A stretch of 63,058 nt of DNA, filler included, from Folioceros fuciformis (Eukaryota): NCBI GenBank assembly GCA_049999805.1. It is 7 parts of 7 records of this genome, joined end to end, with 100 filler letters (N's around TTAATTAATTAA, not from the genome) between each part and the next. Parts side by side here need not be neighbours in the genome. Positions count along the whole stretch, not along the records: positions 11,662 to 22,235 come from JBNGIO010006477.1; 6 more parts are not named here. The stretch is one strand, 5' to 3'. Shown piece by piece: positions 11,662 to 55,153 of the stretch; within the stretch, counting starts at the first letter, position 1, and each line of letters begins with the position of its first letter. A model generated the notes under the pieces. That model saw nothing but the letters and a program-made list of their open reading frames with translations. It was not told the DNA's origin and did no database searches. The translations under genes and the position numbers were made by a program.

Positions 11662-11773
11662 ACTCCCTCTTAAGCTGGACAGGCTTAATGACGCGGGATG
11701 AGCACATGCGAGACTTTATGCCCAACAACCGAACTCGAGAATAGAAGGACACGACTGCAAAACGTGGCTAGCT

Positions 11774-12223
11774 ATGGCAGTCCGGATCGACGCTGCCCTC
11801 GCTTATATCCTGGCAGCCCTCTTTGCAATCACACATCTTTCGATCGTTGTTGTCACAAAGATGCAAGGCGGGCAGCTGTATGCGAGCAAGGCGAGCAGTA
11901 GCAGCAAACGGAGAGCCAGGAGGAAGACGGAGAGCAGATCTGAATCCAGCTGTCAGTCCAGTGCCCAAGAGCCTGAGATCGTGATTGAGGGGGACGAGCA
12001 TCGCTTGAGTCTTGGGCAGTACCTCACCATCATGGGGTACCGAGTCGAGTTGAACATCTCCATGAGCTGGAAGAGCCCAGCATCAACTGTTGAAGATGGG
12101 GCGGGCGAACTCCCGCCATGGACGGAGGAGGAGATAGAGCGGGAAGCTGGCCTGGTCGCGTGCCTCAGGGAGGCTGTGAAACTCCTGGCCCAGCTCAAGG
12201 AAGACGGCGAATATGGAAGTTGA
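11774..12223 (+). CDS. Antisense ORF of C1 (149 aa): N-terminal TM helix, Ser/Arg-rich linker, conserved C-terminal domain
   Basis: Hydrophobic AALAYILAALFAITHLSIVVV. GQYLTIMGYRVELNISM and GLVACLREAVKLL match ORF 25001-25405. Lies between pol and the PPT. Confidence 0.68.
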   Translation: MAVRIDAALAYILAALFAITHLSIVVVTKMQGGQLYASKASSSSKRRARRKTESRSESSCQSSAQEPEIVIEGDEHRLSLGQYLTIMGYRVELNISMSWKSPASTVEDGAGELPPWTEEEIEREAGLVACLREAVKLLAQLKEDGEYGS

Positions 12224-12454
12224 AAATGTCAATCAGCGAGGCGATAAGGTAGACGTCGAGCTTCATCCGCCTGCTGGTGACCATCACTGCTGTGCTGAGC
12301 ATACTGTACATGTCTGCTAACGATCCCACTGTCTCGCGGACTGCAGGTTTCACTGTCTGGCTGCAAGGAGGCAATTCGTTTTATCATGCATATCAGGGAG
12401 CAGGGCTCCCACCCCCCCCCCCCCCTTTTAACCACCAGATAAGTGCTTGGTTGC

Positions 12455-15400
12455 TCAGCCCAGCTCGTCGTTGAAGTATCCTGAAAACTCCTGTAGACCA
12501 AGTCCTGCCATATGCACGTAATGTTTATACTTGGGCAAGGCCTTAGTCAGGATGTCTGCAGTATTTTCTTCAGTACTCACGTAGCCGACTTTTACAACCC
12601 CTCGCTCAACGACATTCCTGATATAATGATGCTGGATCTCGATATGTTTTGTTCTTGCGTGAAAACGAGAATTTGCAACCAGGGCAAGTGCTGACATATT
12701 ATCACACAGGAGTGGAGTTGCTGCTGTCTGCTGTTGCCCAAGGTCTTGCAGAAAGGTACGTTCCCACTCTGCCTCTTTAGAGGCGTCCGTTAAGCTTTTA
12801 TATTCGGCTTCTGTGGATGATAAAGCTATTGATGTTTGCTTTTTGCAGCTCCAGCTTACCACCGCAGATGCTAATAGAAAGCAGTATGTAGATAGGCTTT
12901 TACGGCTGTCGTTATCGGATGCCCAATCTGCATCCGTAAACCCTCTTAGAGTAAGTTGCCCTTGTCCGCTCCTTTTATAAGCTAGTCCATAATACTGGGT
13001 CCCTTTTAGGTATCTATAAACACGTTTAGCAGCTACCCAGTGTGCTTTACCAGGTTTCTCTAGAAATTGTGACAGGGTACTGACAGAGTATTGTATATCT
13101 GGACGAGTCCAGTTTGCGACAAACAGCAGACTACCTACTGCATGACGGTAAGGGATATCTGCCATTTCCTTTTGTTCTTCAGCAGACTGGGGACACTGCA
13201 GGCTGGTAAGCTTGGCTCCTAAGGCAGATGGGGTAGATGCAGGGCGTGCCTCATCAAGTTTGAATTTGTTAAGGAGTTGCTGTATATACTTGTATTGGTG
13301 TATGAACAGCAGACCTTCAGATCTGACCCGGAGCAACTGGATGCCTAAACAGAATTTCAATTCCCCTATATCTTTCATTTCAAATTTGCTGCTTAACATT
13401 GTTTTGACTTCTGCTAACAGATCCTGGTTGTTTGTCGCCAGGATAACGTCATCAACGTATAAGGCGAGCACAACATAGGCATCACCTTTAGACAGTCTAT
13501 AAACATTGCTGTCTGCAGCATTTTGGATAAAGGAAACACTCAGCAAGTACTCATGAATGGTAAGGTACCACACTCTGCCACTTTGTTTCAAGCCGTAAAT
13601 TGTTTTGAGCAGCTTGAGGACTTTTCTAGGATGTGAAGGGTCTTCATAACCCTCTGGTTGTGTCATGTATAGGTCTTCATCGAGAGATCCGTATAAGAAG
13701 GCCGTGCATACGTCCATTTGGTGCAAGTCCAGATCATGCTCTGCGGCAAGTGCCAGTATTACCCTAATTGATTGAGATCTGACCACTGGGGAGAACGTTT
13801 CTTGGTAATCCAGGCCTTCAATTTGAGTGAAGCCTCTGGCTACCAAGCGTGCCTTGTATCGCGCTATCTCCCCTTTTGCGTTGAGCTTTAATCTAAACAC
13901 CCATTTACATGATATAGGCTTTCGACCAGGAGGGAGATCAACCAATCTCCAGGTTTGATTCTTTACCAAAGAGTTATATTCGTCTTCAATTGCAATTCTC
14001 CATTTTTCAGATTCTGGGCTTGAGCAAGCTTCCTTGTAGGATTGTGGCTCAAGATGTGAAGTCATAGATGCTGAATGGACAGCCTCAGCATAGGAAGTCC
14101 TAAAATCGATTGACTGATACCGTGGTTCTGTCCATTGATCTGGAGGTGGACGATATCTGGTTGAGCGCCTCAATGGTTCGGGTTCAGGTACAACTTGCAC
14201 AGGCTCATGAACATCAGCTATTTCTGCATGATCTTGGTCTCCATTCAGAAAGTCATACTCATCTCGTGCATTGTGATGTGCAGCATCTGCTCCCTCTAAA
14301 CCTAGCTCATCATGTTCAGCAACCAGGGGTTCACCATCAGGTGGTTCTGGATTATTGCCTGCTAATGGTATCTGTTGTACAGGTTGTGGATGCTGTACAG
14401 GTGGTGGATCATGAAGCACAATCTCAAAATCTTCTTCTTCTGCAGAAGCATCTTGTGGAAATTGTGATTCAGAAGTTTCTCCTTCAATGAGGTTAGTATC
14501 TCCCTCGGAAGCTAAATGAGACTGCAGTCCTGGTGTTACAGGCTTCACAGGTTCGATAAAAGTGACGGAACGGGCTAACACAATCTGTTGGGTTGCAGGA
14601 TTGTAAAGTTTGTAGGCCTTCACTTGTTCACTGTATCCGACAAAAATAAGAGCTTGGGCTCTCGGATCCAGTTTCTTTCTTTTCTCCTCTGGAATGAGAG
14701 CAAAAGCTCGTGAGCCAAAGACACGGAGATGGAGAAGGCTGGGTTTCCGATTCCAGAAAGCTTCAAAAGGCGTTTTCTTAGGAACTGAGTGAGTGAAGAG
14801 CCTGTTAAGCACATATGTGGCTGTAACGATGGCTTCAGCCCAGTATTTTTGTGGAAGGCCGGCCCATAACAACATGCTGCGTGTCATAGAGAGTAAGGTC
14901 TGATTCTTACGCTCTGCTACACCGTTCTGTTGCGGCGTATAAGGTACAGTGAGCTGCCTTTGAATGCCATGTTGCTGAAGTAGTTCATCAAAGGCATGAT
15001 TGATAAATTCAGTACCATTGTCTGTACGAAGAAACTTGAGAAGATGACCTGTTTGACGCTGAACAGTCACAAGCCATTCGCAAAATGTTTCAAAGGTATC
15101 ACTTTTCTGTTGTATAGGAAAAGTCCAAGTATATCTCGAGAAGTCGTCTGTTAGGCAGAGATAGTAATGAGATCCTCCTACAGAGGGGACATGTATCTTT
15201 CCTGAAATATCCGCGTGCACTAATTCGAGTATTTGTGTTGCTCGAAAGGTAGCCAAGGATGGAAAAGGCTGTTGCTTCTGTTTGGCAACAATACACGCCT
15301 CACAAGACGGAAGATCCTTAAAACAACGAGGTAGGGGCTCAAGATGACATTGCTGAAGAGACATGTCAACAAGTTTGTGTTTATTGACGTGTCCTAACCG

Positions 15401-16888
15401 TGCGTGCCACAGAACAGCCAGTTTTTGTGTATCCTTAGAAACCAGACTGGCCTGATGGCGCATAGGAAATATGTCCAACCTGTACAGGTCGTTGTCTGGT
15501 ATACCTTTGAACAAAAGGATCTGGTCATCATCCTTCTTGTAGAAGGAACATGTGTCATCCACGACGTGGAGTTTATAACATTTGAGTTGCATCAGCTTGC
15601 TCAGCGACATAAGGTTTTTAGCCATGGTCGGTACGTACAGCACATCAGCAAGAGTCAAAATGGAGCCATCATGTAAGGTAAACTTACAACTTCCATGTCC
15701 TCTGATGTGTAAACTGGTCTTGTTTTGTTCATCACCAAGCAACACCTTGTCAGCAGAATTGCTAAGATGTAGTGTGAAGAACTGATCCTTCTTAGTGCAT
15801 ATGTGCGAGGTAGCCCCAGAATCAAGGTACCAGCTGCCCTCTTCATACCATGCACTAGAGAGACAAATCGTAAGGATCTTCACCATAGGTTTGGTGTCAC
15901 CTGGTTTTGTCTCTTTGATAGCAACTGTAGCACTGCTTTTCTGAGTACGCTGAGGTTCTCCTGCCTTCTTTTTCTTGCATTCTCTTGCCCAGTGACCAGC
16001 GATTCCACACCAATTGCAGTTTCCCGGCCTCTTGGGAGATGAAAAAGATGAAGGTTCAGGTCTACCTCCAACCTTGCTTTTGGCTTTCCCTCTGTTGGGT
16101 TTAAAACCTGTCGCCAATGCCTTTTCTGCCTTGTTCCTAGGGACTCCAGCAGAGAGCATGCGGGCCTGCTCTTCTTGATACAAGGCCCCAATCACGTCTT
16201 CAACAGTGATTGTGCTTGTAGAAGAACCAGCAGCACCAGATGGTTTAATGGGCCCATTTTGGGTTGTCACAAAAGCTTGATATGAGGGAGGTAAACTGGA
16301 GAGGAGCTTTGCAACTGCTTGTGTTTCTGGTATTTTCTCACCAGTCAACAAAGTAATCTGAGCTCTAAGACGTCGGAACTTACTGGTATGTGCCGACACT
16401 TTCTCTCCCTCTCTCATACGCAACAAGAAGAACTCTGTTTGCAATGCACACAGAGACATCATGTTCTGCTGCTGATATGTTTTCTCTAGTTGTGCCCAAA
16501 TTGCAGAAGCCTCTGTCAAGGGTTCTATATCTGGCACAAGGTCTGTATCTATTCCGTTTATTAAAAGAGCAACTGCTATTCCATTATGCTGATCCCACTT
16601 AGCAATTTCATCTGCTGTAGGTGCTGGAGTAGTATTGGGATTCGGTTTAGCATATGTTTTGTCAACTATGGACCAAACACTACGAGCCAGCAAAATACTC
16701 TTCATTCTCACACGCCAAGTTTTGTAGTTCTGGCCGTTGAGACGGTCTTTCTCCTTCAAATCTGTTGTGAATACTGGAGAAGTGATAGTAGCCATGTTGT
16801 GTATTTGTGCAGAGAATGGCTGTATGCTCAAAGATTGAAATTGCTGTTCGAGAGATGCTAACAATGCATCCACGGGGTTTGAGGACAT
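12455..16888 (-). CDS. Intact copia gag-pol polyprotein, 1477 aa
   Basis: Motifs CNWCGIAGHWAREC, YLDSGAT, HARLGH..CEAC, HADISG/TDNGTEF/AERKN, YVDD, DADWAS; no stops. Confidence 0.97.
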   Translation of the reverse strand: MSSNPVDALLASLEQQFQSLSIQPFSAQIHNMATITSPVFTTDLKEKDRLNGQNYKTWRVRMKSILLARSVWSIVDKTYAKPNPNTTPAPTADEIAKWDQHNGIAVALLINGIDTDLVPDIEPLTEASAIWAQLEKTYQQQNMMSLCALQTEFFLLRMREGEKVSAHTSKFRRLRAQITLLTGEKIPETQAVAKLLSSLPPSYQAFVTTQNGPIKPSGAAGSSTSTITVEDVIGALYQEEQARMLSAGVPRNKAEKALATGFKPNRGKAKSKVGGRPEPSSFSSPKRPGNCNWCGIAGHWARECKKKKAGEPQRTQKSSATVAIKETKPGDTKPMVKILTICLSSAWYEEGSWYLDSGATSHICTKKDQFFTLHLSNSADKVLLGDEQNKTSLHIRGHGSCKFTLHDGSILTLADVLYVPTMAKNLMSLSKLMQLKCYKLHVVDDTCSFYKKDDDQILLFKGIPDNDLYRLDIFPMRHQASLVSKDTQKLAVLWHARLGHVNKHKLVDMSLQQCHLEPLPRCFKDLPSCEACIVAKQKQQPFPSLATFRATQILELVHADISGKIHVPSVGGSHYYLCLTDDFSRYTWTFPIQQKSDTFETFCEWLVTVQRQTGHLLKFLRTDNGTEFINHAFDELLQQHGIQRQLTVPYTPQQNGVAERKNQTLLSMTRSMLLWAGLPQKYWAEAIVTATYVLNRLFTHSVPKKTPFEAFWNRKPSLLHLRVFGSRAFALIPEEKRKKLDPRAQALIFVGYSEQVKAYKLYNPATQQIVLARSVTFIEPVKPVTPGLQSHLASEGDTNLIEGETSESQFPQDASAEEEDFEIVLHDPPPVQHPQPVQQIPLAGNNPEPPDGEPLVAEHDELGLEGADAAHHNARDEYDFLNGDQDHAEIADVHEPVQVVPEPEPLRRSTRYRPPPDQWTEPRYQSIDFRTSYAEAVHSASMTSHLEPQSYKEACSSPESEKWRIAIEDEYNSLVKNQTWRLVDLPPGRKPISCKWVFRLKLNAKGEIARYKARLVARGFTQIEGLDYQETFSPVVRSQSIRVILALAAEHDLDLHQMDVCTAFLYGSLDEDLYMTQPEGYEDPSHPRKVLKLLKTIYGLKQSGRVWYLTIHEYLLSVSFIQNAADSNVYRLSKGDAYVVLALYVDDVILATNNQDLLAEVKTMLSSKFEMKDIGELKFCLGIQLLRVRSEGLLFIHQYKYIQQLLNKFKLDEARPASTPSALGAKLTSLQCPQSAEEQKEMADIPYRHAVGSLLFVANWTRPDIQYSVSTLSQFLEKPGKAHWVAAKRVYRYLKGTQYYGLAYKRSGQGQLTLRGFTDADWASDNDSRKSLSTYCFLLASAVVSWSCKKQTSIALSSTEAEYKSLTDASKEAEWERTFLQDLGQQQTAATPLLCDNMSALALVANSRFHARTKHIEIQHHYIRNVVERGVVKVGYVSTEENTADILTKALPKYKHYVHMAGLGLQEFSGYFNDELG

Positions 16889-17311
16889 AAGAAACTATCA
16901 AGATGTACAGGAGCTATGGCTCTGACAATCCAGGTAAGTATCTATGTCTCTCTTACAAGGGTGTGTGGCTAACTGGTGTAGCTAACTGACATTTGTGTGT
17001 GAAAGAGACGGGGGGAGTCTTAGTTTGGAAGGCAACGAGTGCTGTGTGCCTGATGCTTTCTAAATTAATTTCCCCTATTAATTTTTAGGTTAGCGTTTCG
17101 GAAGAGCACATGTTTACATCAAAAAACCAGAACCCTAACTGCCATGCCACCTCCCCCTTTTTGAACAGGTGCATCTGTTGGCTGACAAATGGCATGCAGG
17201 GCAAGACTGAAGGACGAGAGGTCACGACAATGCATGCACCTCTTCGTATCTGGCACCAAGATTGTGCCTGTGCCTGGCGCTCCAGGCTCCCTCGCAGCGG
17301 AAGCTGGAAAT

Positions 17312-17935: not shown

Positions 17936-17975
17936 AGAACTCGTTCAGATAGCAGAGCATTAGGCTCTGATACCA

Positions 17976-18190
17976 TATCAATTATCGGACATTGATATAT
18001 GTACGATGTGCAAACGAGAGCCTAATGAGCAAAGGCACGCGTCTTACCAAACAAACATGATTAATTAATTAGAAAAGTATCTCAAGTGTTTTTATACTAA
18101 ACCCTAATAATCAAAGGTCGTAAGATTAAAAGCGTATATCCGTAACCCCAAACGTGACTAACGTAAGCCGTCCAGGGTTAACTACTCACA
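17976..18190 (-). repeat. 5' LTR of C1 (TG...TA termini)
   Basis: Abuts the PBS. The other end interrupts the element D pre-integrase region after PTRAT. Start is at 18188 or 18190. Confidence 0.72.
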
Positions 18191-19773
18191 AAGTGGCTCT
18201 CGTTGGTGGATCAGTGGGGAACGAAGTCCGCTTGTGCTTGCCAAGGATGCAGGCTTCACATTTGCCGAAGTCCTTGTGTTCATCTAAGGTGAGCCCGTCC
18301 ACCATACGCTTCTGGTGCATGTCAACACGTTTTCTGAAATTGACATGGCCAAAGATAGGTCCTGGAAAGCCGTATAGGTTGCGAGGAATTGGCTGCATTG
18401 GCTTGTGCTGACTGGAGGTCAAGGTGGTACAGGTCATCGGACTCCAAGTGTCCAGTAGCCAGAAGGTTGCCATCAGCTGTCTCCACTATGCATTTGCCTC
18501 CTCCAAAACAAACATAACATCCCGACTGGTCGATTTTCCGAACGGAAACAAGGTTCTTTGTCAGGCCAGGTACGTACAGGACATCCGGAATTGCTATGTG
18601 CTGAGCTGGCTCCAGGTCAAGGTTTATGGTACCCTGTCCTTCAATTCTATGCTTGGTGTCGTCCCCAAGACATACATACTTAGCTGGCTCACTTTCATGC
18701 ATTTCAGTGAAGTAGGAGGCATGCGGGGTCATATGTTGTGATGCCCCGCTATCGATATACCAGGTATGCTCCTTCTGGCTGGCATAACAGGTGACCACAT
18801 TGCATTGGGAATTGGAAACTTTTGTGGAGGCGGCAACAGGGGTGACAGGTGACACGTTGGAGAAGAAGGCACGACTATACTTGTTCATAGTAACAGCAAG
18901 ATGTCCAGAGGGGCCAGAATGGCCACTTTCACCTGCCAACCGTTTCCTGCAGGTTTCCCATGAGTGGTTTGTCATACCACAGTGGCCGCATGGTGGTCTA
19001 GATCGTCCACCAGCAGAATTTTGAGGTCTGAAACCTCCTCGGCCTCCTCTGGCTCCTCGGCCTCCTCTCGTGAAAACTCCACGGCCTCTTTGGCCTCGAC
19101 CCCGTCCAGGTTTGTTCAACCATAAGGCCTTGTCATTAGAATATAGCGCTCTGTCGCTGTTAAGGCTAGTACTCGCAATTCTTTTCCGGGACTCCTCAGT
19201 TAGCATAGCAGCTATCACCCTGTTCACAGTGATTGGGCGGACTTCCTGCAGGCTGTGTACAACACCCGTCCAGGATTCGGGCAGCGTAGTCAGCAAGATT
19301 ACTGCTATTAATTCTTCAGCCAGGTCGAAGCCAGCAGAGATGAGCTTGGCTCTCCAGTTTCGGAAGTCAAGGACATGCTTGTCCACTGTATCCGCCTCCG
19401 TCATTTTCAGTCCTGCAAACTGTTTTAGCACATAAGTTTGCAGCATCAAGTCCCTCGAGTCGTAGACTTCATTTACTTGTTGCCAGTATTGTTCTGCTGT
19501 TTGTGCACCTTGGAAGACCCCAATGTGGGTACTCTTCACACTCAGCTGCAAAAGCGTTCTTGCAGTCTGATCAGCTTCTTCCCAAACAGCAAAGTCATCT
19601 TGTGCGACTGGCTTTGGGATAACGACAGGAGGTGTGCCTTGACCTCCAACATAGCCCCACAGCCTCCTGGATTTAAGGATCTCAACCATGCGATCTCTCC
19701 ACACATGGAAGTTAGTTCCATCAAACTTGTCTTCTTTGGCAATATTTAATGACAGAGTCTGCTGTACAGCCAT
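18191..19773 (-). pseudogene. Copia element D gag, protease and integrase N-terminus, truncated by the C1 insertion
   Basis: KEDKFDG, CGHCGMTNHSWETC, YIDSGAS, then a frameshift and FGHVN..CEAC. Confidence 0.88.
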
Positions 19774-20578
19774 CTGGGGGCTTCTCTCAATGCATAACAG
19801 ATGTGTAAGTAACTGTGCAGCACAGGTTCTCTCCTGCTGTGTCTTCTTGAACACATAGCGTGATTTGAATTATGTCCCTGCTTGATATGGGAAACTATGA
19901 GAGTATATTTGTTAGTATATATGCTGTATGCCGATGTACTAATTCCGCGGTTGGCTGCAGGTGCGTGGGTTCCCTAGCGAAGAGGACACACAGGTGTTCG
20001 TGAAGGTGGGCGTAGAGGTCGACTTCAGTCGACGGCCGGGAAACATAGTAGATACCCCTGCTAGGGAGTCTCATGGCATTTAGAGAAGGTTGCTGACGTC
20101 AAACTTGCTAAAATCATACCCGTCCAGAACCTCGTAGCCTTGAATGATGTTATGCGCCATCAAGCAAAGCATAATGGAGATCCAAACCCACACTTGCTGC
20201 CAACGCGTGGGCGCAAGCGATCGCTGGTACGCCTCTTCTCTCGTCAATCCAGTCTTGAAGTTCCTGAAGCCGCCTTGCTCTTCTCGCTAATCTTTCTTGC
20301 TTGCGCTGTCCAGCATGGTGGCACAGGGGCAATCAATTCGTGAGCATTCTCGCAGGCAAAGTGCCTGAAGGCATCTGCTCACGAAAAAGATGTCCCGCAT
20401 GCTTCTACAACCCGTGCAGAATTCAAGGCAGCAAGAAGAGAAAACTAAGGAGACGAGTTCGATGCAACTTAGGAAACTTCAAAAGTGCTGCGTGCACCGA
20501 AGTGCACACAGCCGATCCAAGCTGCTCGTGCGCTGGGAGTTAAACGCACGACATGGATCGCCGCACGCTCTGATACCA

Positions 20579-22699: not shown

Positions 22700-24506
22700 T
22701 GTCCTATGACCACAACTCACGGAGATGTGGTGAATCAGCTTATACAACACTTCAACTTACTTTCGCTTGATGCTACTGGCTGCCATGGCTAGTACTCCCT
22801 CCACCGGCTTGATTCCCATCTTCACCGACCATATTAGAGAGAAAGACTAATTCAACAGCCAGCACTACCTTGTGTGGCACATTCGGATGAAGTTGATCCT
22901 TATTGGCCGAGGCGTTTGGAAGATCATCGACGGCACCCTTCCAAAGCCCAAACCTTCTGCCACTCCACCCCCGCCAGTCGTCGTCGTTGAGAGATGGGAC
23001 TATTCGAATGGGATAGCTTTGGCACTCCTTATCAGCGGCATGGATTCAAGTCTTGTGCCTAGTGTTGAATTTCTCTCAGATGCATCTGCCATCTGGGACC
23101 TGTTGTCTAACACCTACAATGTTAACAATGTTCTAACCTTGTATAGTATAACGTAGGAATTCAACTCCTTAAGGATCAAGGAGACAGATACGATCTCTGC
23201 TCACACCTTGAAGTTCAGACAGCTGCGAGGGCAGCTCGCCTCCCTTGGCTCAACCATGTCGGAGACCGATGTTGCTGCACAACTGCTAATGAGCTTACCA
23301 CCGTCTTACCAGGATTTTGTTACTAGCCTGATGTTGGTATCAACTCAGGGTAAGCCGGGTACCGCCCCCACCCTAACAATAGAGGACATTATTGGCGCTC
23401 TGTATCAGCAGGAGAAGAGTTGCCTTAGCTCTGCAGGAGGGTCCAAGCCTAAAGCAGGCAAGGTGCTTTCCACCCGCTTCAAGCCCAGGAGGAATTCGAA
23501 GGGCGAGGCGAACTTCACCCCTAAAGGTGACTCAACCTCTGCCCCTCCTCGCCGAGCTGGNNNNNNNNNNNNNNNNNNNNNNNNNNNNNNNNNNNNNNNN
23601 NNNNNNNNNNNNNNNNNNNNNNNNNNNNNNNNNNNNNNNNNNNNNNNNNNNNNNNNNNNNCGGAGAGCCGTAGAAGGCTAACTTGTGATAGGCAGCCAGT
23701 ATTGCAGTTAAGGGGAACGCTAGCATAATGGAGACAAAAACTGTAAAGATACTTACGGTTTGCCTCAACACCAAGTTGCATCAAGATGTGGGGTGGTATC
23801 TGGATAGTGGAGCCACCACCCACACATGCAACGATCGTACTCTATTCACAAGCTGGATACTCGTCCTCTCAAGGAAAGGGTGTTACTTGGTGACAAATAG
23901 AGTAGATTCAGCTTGCCAATCATGGGACAAGGCAATTGCGAATTTCCCCTCGAGGACAGTTTGGTGCTTACCTTGGAGCCTGTGCTCCTAGTCCCACAAA
24001 TGGGCAAGAACCTGGTCTCCATGACATAGCTGCTGAAGTAAGGCGATCTTAATATGCTTGCTTCAAGGAGGTCATGCTACCTTTTGAGGACCACAAATCC
24101 TGACTTGTGCCTCTTTAGTGCCGTGCCTCAAGACGGCATGTACAAGCTCTCATTAGCCTTTAGAGGGAGCGCATCAAAGAGGAGCGTCACGCTCCATGGG
24201 AGATAGCCTTCACCGCTGGTTAGGTTACGTTCAGCTTAAGAGCGAGTGTTACGGAATGGATAATCTGCCCGTAACCCTGCCGTCTACCTAGTTACCGTAG
24301 ACTGTAATTAATAGTATTTAATAATTACGAACGGGTGTGCCTCTTCGGAAGAGACACCTAGTGACACTATTTAAGACACACTTTGTATACACCTTTTAGA
24401 GACTAACACGAAATATCTCTCTGAGCATTGCATCTTGATCATGTTAGACTAGATGCAATCCTAATCATGCTAGATTAGAAGCAATCCTATTGCTAGGATT
24501 TTATCA
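22700..24506 (+). mobile_element. Internally deleted copia C2: degenerate gag-protease joined to PPT and 3' LTR
   Basis: C1-like gag (TIEDIIGALYQQE, VKILTVCL, WYLDSGAT). PPT TTAAGAGCGAG is followed by LTR TGTTAC...TTATCA at 24247-24506. Confidence 0.75.
24247..24506 (+). repeat. LTR (260 bp, TG...CA) rich in inverted repeats
   Basis: Follows a PPT. An RNase H frame resumes right after the CA. Confidence 0.72.
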
Positions 24507-24933
24507 CTCCACATATTGCTATCTACTGTGCTCAACAGCCGTTACATGGAGCTGTAAAAAACAAGTATCTGTCGCTCTTAGTTCCTCTGAGGCTGAGTAT
24601 AAATCTTTAACAGAAGCAGTAAAAGAGGCCGAGTGGGAACGCAGCTTCCTCCAAGATTTGGGACATCCGCACGAGAAGCCCACTCTTGTGCTCTGTGACA
24701 ACACTGCAGCCCTTGAGTTAGTAGGGAGCTCAAAATTTCATGCTCGTACAAAACATATTGAAGTGCAACATCACTACATACGAGATGTAGTTCATAGAGG
24801 TGTTCTCAAATTGGAATACATACAGACAGATGAAAACACTACTGATATCCTCACGAAAGGTTTGACTAAACACAAACACTACTATCATATGGAGGGCATC
24901 GGACTGAGGGACTACTCTGCTTATTTTGAGTGA
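24507..24933 (+). pseudogene. RNase H 3' end of copia element C3
   Basis: WSCKKQ, SSEAEYKSL, LCDN, HARTKHIE; very similar to C1. Confidence 0.9.
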
Positions 24934-25000
24934 CAGCCAAAAACACAAGATCAGATGGATGAAGCGTGAGGGATATACCCAATCATCTATATACCTGTCT

Positions 25001-25508
25001 TTAGTCGTCAAAGTCCAACCCCTTGAACTTGTTAAGTATTCTGATGGTGCCCTCTAGCTGATTGACAAGGCCCTGTCTTCTTTCCTCAGTTTGCTCATGA
25101 GTTGGAGGTTCGGAGATGTGGGTGTCCCTATCTCTAACTCTGCCAATCAGCAAAGACACATTCAATTCCACATGGTAGTTCCCTAGGTGCACATGCTGGC
25201 CGACCACGTGCTTGTTGTCCCATTTCCAGCCTTTGATCGCCTCCTCTTTACTCAGGGGCGTAACCTCTGATGAGGAAGACGACCCTGTCCTCATTGCTGA
25301 TGGAGACTGCGAGTCAGTAGGATGGTTGCCAGTAGCTTCACTCCTTCTCTGCCTTCTTGCATAAGGTATTTGGACCTCCCTGTTGCTTCTCCTCCTCATG
25401 ATCAATCAGAAAATAAAGATACAAGAGCCTGAAGATGAAAAGCACGAGTTGCGATATGCCGACGAGGACTGCGAGGAGGAGCTCCATTCTTGTAGTTGCA
25501 GCCTTCAT
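25001..25508 (-). pseudogene. Antisense gene of C3, homolog of 11774-12223, frameshifted after the TM segment
   Basis: MELLLAVLVGISQLVLFIFRLLYLYFLI in one frame, then ORF 25001-25405 with GQHVHLGNYHVELNVSL and GLVNQLEGTIRIL. Confidence 0.62.
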
Positions 25509-25671
25509 TGCAGAGCAGAATCTGGATCGTCAGCTCCAACCACCGAGTTGCCTCCAAGCGTGTGGGGAGATGTGATTGTTCCTCGTGGTTCCTGTCCGTC
25601 ACCTTCTCATAAGGAGCCTTTATTCCAGGGTTCGAGTCTTAAAAATCAACTGTGGTTAGTTTAAGAGGGGG

Positions 25672-25933
25672 TGTTAGGATGGAAGTTAAACCTAACGCAC
25701 AGTTTATTATGATTAGGTTACCTTGACCTAGGGTTGTCTAGTCAAAAGACACATGGACAGTATTTAAACGTTTTTGACATTGAGATTGTTATTCTTTAAT
25801 TCTAATGAAAGTTGTATGTATGCTCTCGCCTACGCTCGTTTTACTCACACGCCCTAGTCGAAGTCCTCTCTAGAGTTTTCTTCTATAATGATCCTTCCCT
25901 TTTAGACCTATAAGCAGTTCAGCTTCTTTCACA
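25672..25933 (+). repeat. 3' LTR of C3 (3' end uncertain)
   Basis: PPT TTAAGAGGGGG at 25661-25671 followed by TGTTAG. Confidence 0.6.
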
Positions 25934-26649
25934 AGCCCTAAGACTTGGTTAATGGCTACCACAATAGACTTTGGCCTTGCCACTTCTACTTCAATCTAAA
26001 ATCAAAGAGCAAATCAAACATTAAAAATTAATAATAACAATAATCATAACAACTTCGGTCAACTGTACATGAGAGAGAGAGACTTCAAATAGTCCCAATT
26101 TATTATTTCCATATTGTACGACCAACCTTACTAGGGCATTGGAGGTTTGCTTCGTCCTAATAATTGCTGTTAATCCCAGTAGGATGTTGTTTTAATAGCA
26201 ACATGCCAAGGCACTAAGCCTCCAACTACCCTTAGCCAAAAAGGTAGATAAGATATATTACCTTTTGTTAAATGTGTACGAAGTTCAACCATCACGTTCT
26301 CTTTTGCTTGGTGTTTAAGGAGTTTGGCCACAAGGTTTCCTTATGCCATGTTTGTAAGAAGCTAAACCACACTGTTAGTGATCCAATGGTCCATGGTGCT
26401 CCAATGTCATGTGCGTTGTTCCACCATGGTCACCAGTGAATGTTTTGAAACCTACAACAGATAATGAACAAGATGTTCATTATCACAAGATATCAACAGA
26501 TAATGAACATATATGAATGCCAAGATGTTCATTATTGTCACATCTACACCTATTTTGTAATTAGAGGCAACGTTTCAAAAGTGTCTTTCTGTAAGAAGGA
26601 TTTATTTTTAAAGCGACGAGTACATTGATCTCAGTGTCCATTTGGGGTG

Positions 26650-27245
26650 AAAGTGGAATATTCCATCTGGAATGCTATGAGACTGGGTATGCCGGGCACG
26701 GGCTTGCTCGAACATGAAGCGCTAGTTGTGTGTGGACAATTGGAGCCAAAGGACCTCATTTTTGCTGACCATGTTACTTTGCTATGCTTAAAAAAGGCTG
26801 GTGCACAGCATTGGTGCCTTTCAGAAGAGCATGGAGGTGCACACGATGATTGCCCAAATACTAACTGTAGGGTATCAAAGGTGGGCAGCTGCCCGCGGAT
26901 ATGTATGCCCAAGCAAAATGTTGCAAGCTGAAGGATGCATGCCAGTTTTTTCACATCATGGCCACAAATGATGTGGTGACATGGAATGTCGTGATAGCGG
27001 GTTATGCAAAATGTGATGATTTGAGAGAGGCACGTCAAGTTTTTGACAGCATGAACTCGAAGAATGAGGTGACATGGAATGCCTGATAGCTGGGTACGCT
27101 TGGTACATTGGACAAGGGCTCGGACATGAGTACCTTGTCTTGAAGGGGAGGGCTGATTCTAGATGCTCATGCCTTTTCACTTGCCTCCTGAAGGCTAGTG
27201 CAAGTACTGGGGCCTTAAAGAAGGATAGGCAGCTGCACGCTATGT
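26650..27245 (+). pseudogene. PLS-class pentatricopeptide repeat protein fragment
   Basis: MYA..C.LKDA.QFF..M..NDVVTWNVVIAGYAK, EARQVFDSM..KNEVTWNA*IAGYA, SIWNAM; stops and frameshifts. Confidence 0.85.
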
Positions 27246-27829
27246 TTTTAACACCAACCATGCTGTCAGCAACTAGGTGCAAGCACACCATGATCTCACC
27301 TTGAAGCCCCAAGCTGGGCGTCCAATCTGTGCATGAAGCTGGGCGACCCAGCATGCGAATACGTAAGTGGCACACAAATATCTGATTCATTATCAGAGAA
27401 AGTCCATATCACCACATGTGGTCGAGGAAGCCTGCCACGGCAATCTCGCTTTGAGCGTTCTTCCTTCTTTCAGGCTGTCACACTTTTCATATACTAGTAG
27501 CCAATACTGTTGCCATGGACAGTAGACGAGACGAGGAAAGGAGGAAGAAGAGTTCGTACATATTTGGTGGGTGTTGAATTAATGCTGTGCGTGAAGATAA
27601 ATAGGAAGTCTGGGATTCCAAAGCAAATGGAATCTAGGCTGAATCTCTCATTCAGCGTCAAGCACTTTCCACAGCGGGGAAAATACCTACTTCGATCCTC
27701 GCTGTTTCAATCCAGAGGGGCAAGGAAGAAAACAGAGTACGTGTGCCTGTCGAGGTTCCCTGGCCCTCTTCACCTGTAATTGGATTGAGAATCGAAGGGT
27801 GCTAATCCCTCGAGCCGTGCTAGCAACAA

Positions 27830-28168: not shown

Positions 28169-28651
28169 ATGGAGCCATTTATGATTGTCTTTATATGCGT
28201 GCTCACCACTCTTCTAACACGCAGAGTTGAAGTGGCGCTGATCAACAAGATGGCGCCGACCAGGAATCGCGTTTTGCCTTGCCAAGAGCAACCTCCTGTG
28301 CACCAACCTAGAATAGGCCATCCAAGCTCAAGTCTGATGAAGACCGAAGATATTGGAGAGTCCTCGCTTCCAGATTCATAGCGACGACCGACTCTGGCTG
28401 ACAAGAACATGTTTAGTCACCTACACACTGTTCTGAAGAAGTGCGATGAGTTGGGAGAGGCCCTACAGGAATCAAGCTGCAAACTGTATGAGTTGTAAGA
28501 GTTGATATCTCCGAGGCCTGATCCTAAGGACCTTAACCATCCTGTGACAGAGATCGAGTGTCAGCACTTGGTGAAGGAGCTAGTCCTGATGGGTTACGTT
28601 GAAGAGGTTGACGGTGGAAAACCTTACAGCCCCACTCACATTTACTGGTAA
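28169..28651 (+). pseudogene. Antisense ORF of element F (hydrophobic N-terminus, two internal stops, ends on a GTAAGT donor)
   Basis: MEPFMIVFICVLTTLL. The frame continues through a TAG and a TAA to ...SPTHIYW, with donor TG|GTAAGT at 28648. Confidence 0.55.
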
Positions 28652-28853
28652 GTGATGGAGACTGCTACCATACAGTTTGCTGCAAAGAGTTTACGCTTCG
28701 TACTTTGACTTGTAGGCTTCATCCACTAAACTATTGCTACCTGAATTGCTTGTATCAGGAAGGACAACAATGGGAAGATATTTAAGCAATCAGGCTGGGC
28801 GTCTGGACCTCCTTAACCAATCGACAAAAAATACATCAAGTCCTTGGGTTTCT

Positions 28854-37725: not shown

Positions 37726-38667
37726 TCAAAAAGGTTGCTTCGAAATCTCTGAGTCATCCAAATTTATCACTAAGTGATAGCCTAGAGAGTCAGCTATGCA
37801 AACTATTGCCGAAGCTTGAGCAAATAATAGTGGAAACTTGGATATCTTCCATGCTCCATTCTGCCTTTCAAGTTGCGAAAGGGCACGAAATTTATCGTCA
37901 TGAAAATGGGCAGAAAGAATGTTGTACATATCCACAATGGCTCTAACTTGGTCATCAATTGATTGCCAACCTGCGGAGTTCTTGATACACTGAAACAACT
38001 TAGCATCTGCGGATAGAAAATATCGCCACCAATTAGCTCTGGTTCCTCTATCCTTGGTGTCTCCATACTTCCCCTTCAAGTGCTCTTCAAAGAGCTCAAA
38101 AACGCCTCTCTTGTTGTTGGCGCTTTTTGCCGCTAAGAGATCGAATTCAAGATCCCGAATTCTTCGTTCACAAAGAAAAATAGCCAGTTCCTTAGACCTC
38201 GAAGCTTCTATGGCCTGCTGCAACGCTTGCTTCCTAGCCCTCGAAGCTTCTATGGCCTGCTCCCTACTAGCCCTCGAAGCTTCTATGGCATGCTCCCTAC
38301 TAGCCCTCGAAGCTTCTATGGCCTGCTCCCTACTAGTCCTCGAAGCTTCTATGGCTTGTTGCAAGGCTTGCTCCCTAGCCCTTGAGACCTGGATGGTTTC
38401 TTCATGCAGCGTCTTGACTAAATCAATGAGCATATGTTGCTTCTCGGCGTCCTTCTCTGTTTCCAACAGGGTCAACAAAGGGTCCATATTAGAAGCTCTA
38501 ACACTGAAAGCCTTGACATGCCTATCCCGAGCATAATCTCTTCTTGGCATACTCAAGCCCATGAGTGATCCAGAAGCAAAGCCGCTAATCGGCAGCAGCA
38601 AAGCTGCCATAGATAAAGATGCCCACAATCGCACCAACAAAGCCGCCATAGACAAAGACGCCCGCAA
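37726..38667 (-). CDS. Orphan intronless protein (~300 aa): targeting-peptide-like N-terminus, repeat coiled-coil, helical C-terminal domain
   Basis: 313-codon ORF with ATG at 38649, FSVRAS, (EQAIEASRASR)n, RGVFE..RANWW..YNILSAHFH. Confidence 0.6.
   Translation of the reverse strand: MRASLSMAALLVRLWASLSMAALLLPISGFASGSLMGLSMPRRDYARDRHVKAFSVRASNMDPLLTLLETEKDAEKQHMLIDLVKTLHEETIQVSRAREQALQQAIEASRTSREQAIEASRASREHAIEASRASREQAIEASRARKQALQQAIEASRSKELAIFLCERRIRDLEFDLLAAKSANNKRGVFELFEEHLKGKYGDTKDRGTRANWWRYFLSADAKLFQCIKNSAGWQSIDDQVRAIVDMYNILSAHFHDDKFRALSQLERQNGAWKISKFPLLFAQASAIVCIADSLGYHLVINLDDSEISKQPF
38198..38385. repeat. 33-bp coding tandem repeat (about 5 copies)
   Basis: Units of CTCGAAGCTTCTATGGCCTGCTCCCTACTAGCC. 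Confidence 0.9.
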
Positions 38668-38733
38668 TCCTCAACCAGCAAAGGCTTCCCGATTCTCCCA
38701 CTACCTCTCACCCCGCGAGCTCAAGAGCAAAGC

Positions 38734-49679: not shown

Positions 49680-52600
49680 TCATGTGTCAATGTGGGCAGA
49701 ATAGTCACTGAGGCCAAGCCCCTGCATATGTAGATAGTGGGGGAGCTTGGGCAAACCCTTTGTAAAAATGTCTGCCGTGTTTGAGTCTGTACTTACGTGA
49801 CTAACCTTGATGATGCCCCTGGATACCAGATCTCGAATATAGTGATGGTGCACTTCGATGTGCTTCGTTCGTGCGTGGAAGGTTGGCTTGGATACAAGCT
49901 CCAGGGCTGAAGTATTGTCACATAAGATAATTGTGGGATCTAGTTGCGGGTGGCCAAGACCTGTAAGGAAACTTCTTTCCCACTCTGCTTCTTTGGCTGC
50001 TTCAGTCAGCGACTTATATTCAGCTTCAGTGGAGCTAAGGGCAATGGTGGTCTGTTTTTTGCTGCTCCAGGTGACTGCTACTGAAGCAAGAAGAAAACAA
50101 TAAGAGGAAATGCTACGCCTGGAGTCTGAATCCGAGGCCCAATCAGCATCTGAGTAACCAGATAAGGTGAGTCATTGGTCCCCACTTCTCCTGTACATGA
50201 GGCCATAGTTTATCGTGCCTTGGAGATAACGAAAAATTCGTTTCACTGTTGTCCAGTGAATTCTCCCGGGACACTCAAGGAATTGGGATACTGTGCTGAC
50301 AGCGTACTGTATATCGGGCCGTGTCCAGTTGGCGACGAACAACAAGCTACCCACTGCGTGCCTATAAGGTACACCCTCCATGTCCTTCAATTCATCTGGG
50401 GTTTGTGGGCTCTGCCGGCGAGTTAATTTGGTGCCAACTGCATATGGAGTCGTGGCAGGTCTTGCCTGGTCTAGATGGAACTTGCGTAGGATTTCAGTTA
50501 TATACTTTCTCTGGTGTATATACATGATCCCAGCATCGCGAACTCGCAGAATTTGAATGCCTAGGCAGTACCTCAACTCTCCAATGTCCTTCATGTCAAA
50601 CCTCTGGTGTAGCTGCTTCTTTACGTCTGCTAACAGTGCATGGTCGTTTGTAGCAAGGATCAAGTCGTCGACGTAGAGAGCAAGGAGCACAGTAGAGGTT
50701 CCTCTCATGAGCATGTATACGTTTGTGTCAGCAGTATTCTAAACGAAGTCAATGCTGATTAGGTAAACATGCATTGTAAGATACCATACCCTGCCGCTTT
50801 GCTTCAGTCCGTAGATACATTTCAATAACCTGAGAACTTGATGCGGGTGTGCAGGGTCTTCGTAGCCTTCGGGCTGAAACATATACAGCTCCTCCTCAAG
50901 GATCCCATACAAGAAGGCAGTGCATACGTCCATTTGCTCGAGGTCAAGGTCAAACTCTGTGGCATAAGCAAGGATGAGGCGAATGGATTGGCTGCGAACT
51001 ACAGGTGAGAATGTTTCCTGGTAGTCCAGCCCTTCCACTTGAGTGAATCCTCGCGCCACAAGTCGTGCTTTGAACCTGGCGACTTCACCTTTGGCATTTA
51101 ATTTTAGTTTGAATGTCCATTTGCAGGATATGGCTTTCCTGCCTGGAGGGAGATCAGTGAGCGTCCAGGTTTTGTTCTTCACCAAGGATTGGTATTCTTC
51201 CTCAACTGCCTGCTTCCATTGCTCACGTTGAGGACCTGTGAATGCCTGAGTTAATGTAGTGGGTTCCTCAGGTAAGGACAAAGCTGGTCCGAGGGAGGGG
51301 ACTGCATGGGTTCGAGAATCAGTGGATGCATAGGGAGGTTCCTTCCATTCAGATGGAGGAGGTCTGTGACATGTGGAACGGTGGGGGAGATCGACATCTG
51401 GGTCAACCTGGGGTGGAGGCTGTGCAGGGTTAGCCAAGGTATGTGTATCATCAGCTAGCCCTACATCCCCCTCTGCGTCCAACACAGGTTGAGCAGGGAT
51501 GGCATCCATGGTGTCTGCATCTATGGTTTCGCCTTCAACATATGCATCTGCGTCTGCCTCAATGTGGTGGGGAAGGTCTAAATTGTGACTTTCTGCAGGC
51601 ACAGGAGGTGGAACCACGGGTTCAGGCTCATCATCATCAAGGGGGAAAACAGCAGGTTGATCAGCCGGAGAGGAAGTTGTAGGGTCCTCTGGTGGGCTGT
51701 GTTCGGAGGCAGGACTATGGAGTTCAACAAAGGTGACGCTCCTAGCAAGAACAATAGTATCAGTGTCTGGGTTATACAGCTTGTAGGCTTTTGAGTGTTC
51801 ACTGTAGCCAACCAGGATAAGTGCCTCAGCGCGGCTGTCTAACTTATGTCTTTTCTCCTTAGGTATATAGGCATAAGCGCGGGATCCAAAGACCCGGAGG
51901 TGGAAGAGGCTGGGCTTCTTGTTCCAAAATACCTCAAATGGGGTTTTGTTTGGGACAGTGCTGGTGAGGACACGGTTGACGATGTACGTCGTTGTCACTA
52001 TAGCCTCCGCCCAATAACCCTGAGGTAAGCCTGCCCATAACAACATGCTTCTTGTCATGGACAGTAAAGCCTGATTTTTCCTTTCTGATACTCCGTTTTA
52101 TTGGGGCGTATAGGGCACTGTTGTCTGGTGCGGTATCCCATGAGACTGCAGCAGGTCTTCAAAGTTGGAGTTAACAAATTAAGTGCCATTGTCTGTCCTA
52201 AAGGTCTTCAAGAGCTGCCCAGACTGTCGCTGAGCAGTGGTAAGCCAATCCTTGAAAAATCCATAAGTGTCACTCTTGAGTTCCATTGGAAATGTCCATG
52301 TGTACCGGCTGTAGTCATCAGTGATAGTGAAGAAGTAGCGGGCACCTCCTAGTGAGGGCTCATGGACCTTGCCTGAGATGTCAGCATGGACTAACTCAAG
52401 GGCTCTTGTGGCTCTCTGTGCAGGTGAGTTAGGGAGTGGCAGCTCCTTTTGCTTGGCTAGTATGCAAGGTTCACACACAGGTAGTTGTTTAAAGCATTTC
52501 GGTAGAGGCTCACGATGGCATCCTAAGACTGACATGTCTATCAACTTGGACTTGTTGATGTGGCCCAAACGGGCGTGCCAAAGCAAGGCCTGCTGTTCTT

Positions 52601-54538: not shown

Positions 54539-55153
54539 ATGCCGAGAGCTCGAGGGAAGGGTAAATTACCCGTAGACCCGTTTGCATGCAGTTCTGGCCT
54601 GAGTGTAGAAGCACAACATAAGAACCTTCAACACTTCTTTAACCTGTGTCCCAGACCTGCATCACACAAATATTCTAATCAGAACCAGAGACAGGCTAAT
54701 CCTGATCCCCTAGCGGGTCTTAGGCAGCAAATTTGCAAGGAAATAAATCAATCTCTTGCAATTAGTGCACAAAGAGCAAGAGAAACACCCACCTGTAAAA
54801 TTTGTGCGAGTACATATCCTCCCAAGCCTAATCTAACCCTCCGGGATTTATACAATAGTTTCAGGTCTGAATCAGAGTGGCACAGGCAGCAGGTGTCCGA
54901 TCTGACAGATAGAGTTATAAACTCTCAAAGGCATATAGTGACCCTCACCCGTCAGATAGAATTGCTGGCCAGACACCCTGCATTCAATAAATCTGCCAAG
55001 CAGCCTGACCTGACTAGTTCAGACCCTGAGATAGACGAATCCCAGCCAGTTTCCTTGAGTCATGGGAACGAGAAACCATTTCTTGGTCAACTCATGATAA
55101 GGCATCTTTGTAACCTGGCTCATGTCCAGCAGCAACCGAGGAAGGGGGACTAG
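54539..55153 (+). CDS. ORF0 of G (204 aa; MPRARGKGK, CKIC, coiled-coil), overlapping the gag start
   Basis: Open frame between PBS and gag, overlapping gag by 32 nt in another frame. Confidence 0.62.
   Translation: MPRARGKGKLPVDPFACSSGLSVEAQHKNLQHFFNLCPRPASHKYSNQNQRQANPDPLAGLRQQICKEINQSLAISAQRARETPTCKICASTYPPKPNLTLRDLYNSFRSESEWHRQQVSDLTDRVINSQRHIVTLTRQIELLARHPAFNKSAKQPDLTSSDPEIDESQPVSLSHGNEKPFLGQLMIRHLCNLAHVQQQPRKGD

Follow-up and report, generated by a model that had tools for sequence, protein, structure and literature searches.

Does an open reading frame (ORF) that runs antisense behind the pol end of a copia element belong to that element as a gene, and if so, what would it encode? The question is raised by two ORFs, C1 and C3, in a 63,058-nt stretch of the Folioceros fuciformis genome (assembly GCA_049999805.1), hereafter the window, which consists of contigs joined by artificial N44-TTAATTAATTAA-N44 linkers and in which most of the long ORFs are Ty1/copia polyproteins. 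Since C1 and C3 lie on different contigs, their nearness in the window is meaningless. The original prediction held that they form a second antisense protein family, here family B, distinct in its core from another such family (family A) and located at a fixed place in the element, and this general picture was borne out. The features of C1 and its host element are listed here.

11774..12223, plus strand: C1 antisense ORF (family B), an open frame of 149 aa
11855..11863, plus strand: second start region of C1, K28-M30; a Met at codon 28-31 with a basic motif is found in most relatives
12455..16894, minus strand: C1 copia gag-pol in one open frame (Gag, zinc knuckle, protease, integrase, RT, RNase H)
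11662..11671, minus strand: C1 polypurine tract; the contig ends at the first 3' LTR base
17964..17975, minus strand: C1 primer-binding site TGGTATCAGAGC, presumably of the initiator-Met tRNA type
17976..18190, minus strand: C1 5' LTR of ~215 bp, with a telo-box-like TTAGGGTTT beside TATAAAA
17312..17929, minus strand: extra sense ORF of C1, 205 aa, between primer-binding site and gag, with 53 genome matches

C1 had been proposed to be coding, and it does form an open 149-aa frame on the plus strand, starting ~110 nt from the polypurine tract and lying antisense to and 3' of a single-ORF gag-pol (16894-12455, minus), on which Gag, protease, integrase, RT and RNase H follow in this order (Pfam matches, with the RNase H end placed by position and motif). 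The protein begins with Met1 and a hydrophobic helix (approximately residues 9-27), followed by a second Met region, a basic and Ser-containing linker, a beta-hairpin core and a C-terminal amphipathic helix. The ends of the 5' LTR match those of the paired LTRs in a complete relative. C1 is itself nested in another copia element (18190-19869, minus), which it breaks near the start of the integrase region. No Pfam family was found at cut-off for the 205-aa sense ORF, nor for two further sense ORFs of ~200 aa upstream of gag (54539-55153, plus; 11504-10926, minus), and the N-terminus is basic in both 17929-17312 (minus) and 54539-55153 (plus). The corresponding features of C3 are as follows.

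22815..24933, plus strand: C3 copia coding remnant, with Gag/protease and the RNase H end; assembly gap at 23561-23660
25663..25679, plus strand: C3 polypurine tract and start of the 3' LTR, with TGTTAGGA at 25672
25338..25487, minus strand: C3 Met1 frame, a 49-aa hydrophobic peptide that overlaps the main ORF in another frame
25001..25399, minus strand: C3 Met2 ORF, open, 132 aa, bearing the family B core

C3 had to be redrawn. It was initially described as one ORF from 25508 to 25001, with a transmembrane-like start joined to the shared domain; reading in frame from 25508 meets stops, and this single 169-codon ORF was rejected. The Met homologous to the C1 start is at 25487, the hydrophobic frame that it opens ends after 49 aa, and the core lies in a separate 132-aa frame whose Met, at 25399, is 88 nt downstream and out of frame. 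No integrase-RT match was found in the remnant at 22815..24933. Elsewhere in the window, a decayed PPR gene fragment lies between two elements (26600-27400, plus; PPR match at 26913-27083, which we take to be of the plant-type motif), and, together with the features of the elements, it suggests a land plant as host. A non-copia ORF of 314 aa (37726-38670, minus), which contains an internal repeat of 33 nt and a region resembling a coiled coil, matched no Pfam family at cut-off.

The kinship of the two proteins is real in spite of this rearrangement. C1 and C3 match in BLASTP at E 4e-8, and their Smith-Waterman score of 76 was not reached by any of 5000 shuffles (mean 28 +/- 5). Little similarity had been seen at the DNA level, and indeed the longest blastn match is 11 nt. 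The motifs GQ..Y.VELN.S and GLV..L...L..K, from which the kinship had been proposed, are present in both proteins, and the zinc-finger pattern, said to be lacking, was not seen in the family B alignments.

Further homologs at the same position in the element were a matter for the whole 87-Mb assembly, in which genome searches returned 100 family B loci representing at least 61 distinct places, a lower bound given that the best candidates alone were scored and some matches were left unfetched. The loci were picked through the antisense ORF itself. At 56 of the 61, this ORF is antisense and convergent on the RNase H end, at a median distance of 228 nt, and at the remaining five the RNase H end is absent from the fetched stretch. 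Two of six longer stretches that were fetched hold complete elements: their LTR pairs are 98% and 97% identical, they are flanked by 5-bp target duplications, and the family B ORF lies within them. A captured host gene was considered and rejected, because every locus with sufficient flanking sequence proved to lie in an element and the searches turned up no homologue outside.

In a quick tree of RT/RNase H sequences (74 rows, each with at least 200 aligned residues), elements carrying family B fall together with those of family D, another antisense family, in a single clade (SH-aLRT 99), with families A and C apart from it. Distances between family B cores correlate with those between the RT/RNase H regions (Mantel r 0.6 across 38 loci; 0 of 2000 permutations as high), and the core evolves far faster than pol, with a median identity of 25% vs 67%. 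Judging from these comparisons, the antisense gene is evidently inherited with the element, with occasional swapping. At two loci (L021 and L047) the nearest neighbour of the antisense ORF is not that of RT/RNase H, a mismatch that suggests swapping or recombination between families. One element inside the family B clade, ending at 49680, has no family B ORF in the 520 nt left before the contig end (49159-49680). We see about an even chance that the family B gene is a lineage-wide antisense accessory gene of a single Ty1/copia clade.

Coding constraint, which had been suspected from the two founding copies, is evident in the codons of the wider family. Pooled dN/dS (Nei-Gojobori, transition bias ignored) is 0.36 over 11 non-overlapping pairs from 30 copies, and by part it is 0.42 for the hydrophobic start (p 3e-6), 0.42 for the linker, and 0.29 for the core, which was counted together with the linker in two of the 11 pairs. 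Diverged pairs range from 0.14 to 0.3, and three very recent pairs have values of 0.9-3.9, as expected from decay after insertion. For comparison, values were 0.76-1.21 in the control non-coding frames and 0.44 in the shadow frame; all of these are rich in stops, each of the other five frames carrying 69-189, vs five in the coding frame. Third codon positions are the most variable. All parts of the family B ORF are under purifying selection, the hydrophobic start included. That the hydrophobic stretch is a mere pyrimidine tract was rejected on its dN/dS and on the conservation of Met1. We are highly confident that family B is a real gene.

These results also bear on the view that the conserved entity is an antisense RNA, or a set of overlapping cis-signals of the genomic RNA, with the protein as a by-product. 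The stretch between the ORF and pol holds non-coding motifs that show nucleotide-level conservation, some with single-base indels, and copies with broken ORFs have multiplied, both of which would fit an RNA function; however, synonymous changes exceed non-synonymous ones in one frame only, and the protein motifs persist at a median core identity of ~25% without DNA similarity. The dN/dS analysis largely refutes an RNA-only function, and we regard it as highly improbable.

What a family B gene would make is complicated by the presence of two candidate starts. Met1 was found in 48 loci and has a purine at -3 in 46 of them (where several ATGs were possible, the choice of Met1 favoured a -3 purine), and Met2, at about codon 28-31, was found in 51 of the 61 loci, 50 of them with a -3 purine; at internal pol Met codons the figure is 67 of 123. 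Met2 opens MxTRSG, MAPKR or MPSKR-like motifs, which are typical of the true N-termini of nuclear proteins. Within ~27 residues after Met1, 29 of 30 copies have a 19-residue stretch with a hydropathy of at least 1.6, directly followed by three or more K/R in 25 of the 30; the anchor was called by hydropathy and K/R count, hydropathy being no topology predictor, and the stretch often contains E/Q, H or R. Met1 continues into Met2 in frame and without a stop in 33 of 48 copies. In the other 15 the anchor is uncoupled from the core, eight times by a frame offset and seven times by an intervening stop. The same frame offset occurs in C3, L028 and L033, and a stop just before Met2 is common to C3, L027, L028, L033, L034 and L036, so the uncoupling was inherited among the relatives of C3. 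We lean towards two products from the family B gene. The route by which ribosomes would reach Met2 is unexplained, since the strong context of Met1 should limit leaky scanning.

The uncoupled copies can also be read in another way, with the Met2 protein as the sole effector, a nuclear regulator comparable to the protein that gene23 of maize Grande encodes, and the Met1 stretch as a peptide-encoding upstream ORF (uORF), rather than an anchor, that controls translation from Met2 or targets the mRNA to the ER. After uncoupling, the Met2 ORF of the C3 group has a dN/dS of 0.19-0.26 (p<=1e-4), and the Met1 stretch, now separate in C3, L028, L033, L034 and L036, retains ~0.2-0.4 in most pairs, an estimate that is noisy over 22 codons. 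The conserved Met2 context fits this reading as well, as does the nuclear localisation of GENE23 reported in PMC7264820. On the other hand, Met1 reads without a stop into Met2 in the 33 fused copies, and the basic residues after the hydrophobic stretch are placed as in an anchor, and we consider it unlikely that Met1 serves only a uORF. A cleavable signal peptide, which would make the long form secreted or lumenal, seems quite improbable to us: the hydrophobic stretch does sit at the extreme N-terminus, and Ala often stands one or two residues before Met2, but the net charge is ~0 before the stretch and strongly positive after it, which favours a cytosolic C-terminus, and Met2 has a start context of its own.

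Behind the stop codon, the antisense strand carries further conserved signals, which resemble those of an intron.

12249..12346, plus strand: inferred 98-nt spliceosomal intron of C1 in the antisense 3' UTR, donor AAG/GTAGAC, acceptor TGCAG
24957..24978, minus strand: donor-like site GG/GTATAT and CTTCATCC motif of C3, after the stop; acceptor uncertain

In C1 the donor lies 25 nt after the stop, with the conserved CTTCATCC at 12261-12268 and a branch sequence, CTAAC, at 12317. On the antisense strand CTTCATCC sits 11-14 nt inside the intron-like segment; as GGATGAAG, its counterpart after the pol end, it was found in 48 of 53 family B, 10 of 11 family A and 10 of 10 family D loci, and at that place in none of 13 family C and none of 23 metagenome loci. 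Of 57 loci, a splice donor was called in 50, vs 12% of shuffles and none on the reverse strand, and both a branch and an acceptor in 29, vs 6% of shuffles and six on the reverse strand; the patterns were defined after viewing the sequences, and the counts are not independent because the copies are related. Among the 35 loci where both ends were called, 30 have their donor 18-49 nt downstream of the stop, a range that avoids nonsense-mediated decay. Splicing of the family B antisense transcript is, in our judgement, likely. The transcript of HBZ, an antisense gene of HTLV-1, is spliced. Between the putative intron and the pol stop, positions 12390-12445 hold conserved non-coding motifs (ATCAGGGAGCA-like, a C-run, and ACCAGATAAG); read on the pol strand they make up a G-rich tract, and they may represent a cis-signal or the remnant of an exon.

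Three other antisense families were recognised, represented in the window as follows.

48613-48000 and 5942-5100, minus strand: family A antisense genes, with apparent coding-sequence introns at 48192-48094 and 5305-5207
28169-28670, plus strand: family D antisense ORF, broken by stops; Met, 27 mostly hydrophobic residues, second Met, different cargo
60192-59833, minus strand: family C antisense ORF; hydrophobic stretch and RRRR, without a second Met or the CTTCATCC motif

Families A (34 matches), C (57) and D (10) are antisense after RNase H in most fetched loci, and they too begin with a hydrophobic stretch. Among the copies of family D listed, seven of eight have the second Met at codon 28, and a profile comparison of families B and D was not significant (probability 0.3%). 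Some of the 57 family C matches are nearly identical, a sign of recent activity. In family A, the intron-like segment measures 94-109 nt and at nine of 11 loci examined is followed, in phase, by a conserved coding exon (a GT donor was called in six of the nine), so that these genes appear longer than their visible ORFs, with a second exon encoding a predicted amphipathic helix. Family A is an internal control for the intron, and it may not be wholly unrelated to family B: its exon 2 helix aligns weakly with the last helix of family B (probability 56%, E 1e-4). The claim that the cargo of family B differs from that of family A is accordingly right for the core and needs softening for the rest, given this weak alignment and the intron motif common to the two.

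A search for relatives with an HMM was productive in one instance. Among 1.84 billion representatives, the sole outside HMMER hit (P0002; E 9e-4, 91 aa) comes from one Logan contig of 1188 nt, carries the family B core motif, and may derive from the same or a related plant; nothing else matched in that set. A word-index search found no family B member among 3437 candidates and none among 8000 longer proteins, phage records held no match, and the ESM Atlas gave no usable hit. The best E against PDB sequences was 0.033, Pfam gave nothing at cut-off, and none of 27 family B members had a TRP28 (PF04195) or SMC-like Pfam hit at E<=0.1. In 67 metagenome copia loci, mostly <50% identical in the RNase H region, no family B hit was found (best E 0.14). 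Structure prediction likewise gave part of an answer. In the AlphaFold model, a helix at the N-terminus is followed by a disordered linker, a long beta-hairpin and a final helix at the C-terminus, and a model of the core, with the hairpin and helix, reaches pLDDT 80, but no fold match emerged: the full-length model (pLDDT 66) found generic helices only (best Z 4.5), and the core found no Foldseek match at E<=0.001 (best Z 2.9), a null that establishes neither a new fold nor a lack of relatives.

Conserved signals point to the following mechanism. Family B would be transcribed by RNA polymerase II in antisense direction, starting in the region of the 3' LTR, and the transcript would lose a short intron immediately downstream of the stop and be translated from two AUGs. 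Initiation at Met1 would give a single-pass protein of 140-160 aa whose N-terminus is very short and whose cytosolic side is basic (an N-out/C-in signal anchor), probably located at the ER or nuclear envelope, and initiation at Met2 a soluble protein of 110-130 aa with a basic start (MxTRSG, MAPKR, MPSKR), likely nuclear or nucleic-acid binding. The beta-hairpin and amphipathic helix common to both forms would act as an interaction module. In the least certain step, the products would work in trans, placing or escorting the RNA or particles of the element, or else a host factor, at endomembranes and the nucleus. Such action would account for the multiplication of copies whose own gene is broken; a trans-acting accessory role at endomembranes and nucleus is nonetheless speculative, and we put it forward tentatively, as a suggestion that may well prove wrong.

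Other small membrane proteins invite different functions. The double gene block of carmoviruses, as described in PMC5651262, pairs a small basic protein with a beta element (DGBp1) and a small membrane protein (DGBp2), and family B could be a cell-to-cell movement module of this kind, with membrane and basic RNA-binding proteins at plasmodesmata. The sizes and the pairing of hydrophobic and basic parts agree with that description, the C3 lineage is naturally split into two ORFs with the same two-part layout, and the hydrophobic start is kept in four antisense families. However, family B is usually one fused frame, its basic tract is predicted to be disordered rather than a central helix, and no sequence, Pfam or fold link between the two was found; searches of Pfam, BFVD and PDB gave no hit for DGBp1/DGBp2 kinship, an absence compatible with kinship. 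The only two papers found on copia together with movement proteins and plasmodesmata both deal with endogenous caulimovirids. We consider a movement module very unlikely, and equally so a broader reading in which plant-lineage copia elements carry a general antisense spliced cassette, combining a hydrophobic module with exchangeable cargo (at least four families), for virus-like movement or membrane trafficking between cells, with the C3 lineage as a natural split into a two-protein form like the double gene block.

A cell-cell fusogen of the FAST/sORF2 type, as in insect MDG1 retrotransposons, would also be a small retrotransposon protein with a single hydrophobic segment, a polybasic tract and an amphipathic tail, and by hydropathy family B fits some of the criteria in bioRxiv 10.1101/2025.03.14.642691. 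It lacks both the myristoylation motif (MGxxxS/T in 0 of 30 copies) and the 10-50-aa ectodomain described there, its hydrophobic window starting at residue 2-12 with almost no ectodomain before it. It is also antisense, has a second start codon, and resides in a copia element of what is, by inference, a walled plant. We regard a fusogen as extremely improbable. A membrane-anchored and a soluble form of one protein remain the reading that we prefer.

Antisense ORFs between pol and the 3' LTR (aORF-3R or eORF-3'R) are a known class, described chiefly in Ty3/gypsy elements, conserved across copies and of unknown function according to PMC7264820. Examples in PMC7264820, PMC11963269 and PMC4093653 are maize Grande gene23, rice RIRE2, Silene Retand, bean pvRetro13 ORF2 and Botrytis Boty; Retand and pvRetro13 are Ty3/gypsy elements, and the bean antisense ORF2s measure 211-939 aa (PMC11963269/PMC4093653). 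In the available text of PMC6317226, eORF-3'R occurs in 47-86% of Athila, Ogre and Retand elements, and REXdb gives 1% for SIRE and a dash for 13 other copia lineages, in a survey that counted only ORFs of 250+ codons and whose Bianca and Ikeros rows are incomplete in that text. Family B is of the aORF-3R class by position, and it shares the orientation and the conservation across copies. It differs in its Ty1/copia host, its length of 110-160 aa, its hydrophobic N-terminus, its two starts, its inferred intron and its lack of a Pfam hit, aORF-3R ORFs often carrying TRP28 or SMC-like domains. The env-like ORF of SIRE/Sirevirus, a Ty1/copia eORF-3'F, is a sense ORF of 381-393 aa in bean, whereas family B is antisense and shorter, and no sequence match between the two was found. 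HTLV-1 HBZ has its promoter in the 3' LTR (PMC7264820), whereas the promoter and transcript of family B are inferred only, and the proteins are unrelated. New here are the second in-frame Met, the antisense splice signals after the stop, and three other antisense families with hydrophobic starts. The literature covered, mostly open-access papers, gave no account of a small antisense membrane ORF in plant copia elements, and the accessible parts of PMC12477816 and PMC9804982 contained nothing further on such ORFs.

Copia elements other than SIRE have been treated as consisting of gag and pol only, and what antisense ORFs do in the LTR elements of plants is an acknowledged open question. A selected and probably spliced antisense gene with two starts, together with an extra sense gene before gag, would make this copia clade as gene-rich as complex retroviruses, and suggests that size cut-offs, such as the 250 codons of the main survey, have hidden such genes. 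Family B is small, exists in many diverged natural copies, and offers a natural split between anchor and core, which makes it easy to test. Should the membrane form mediate cell-to-cell movement, plant retrotransposons would have a path into the germ line that resembles the insect sORF2 case.
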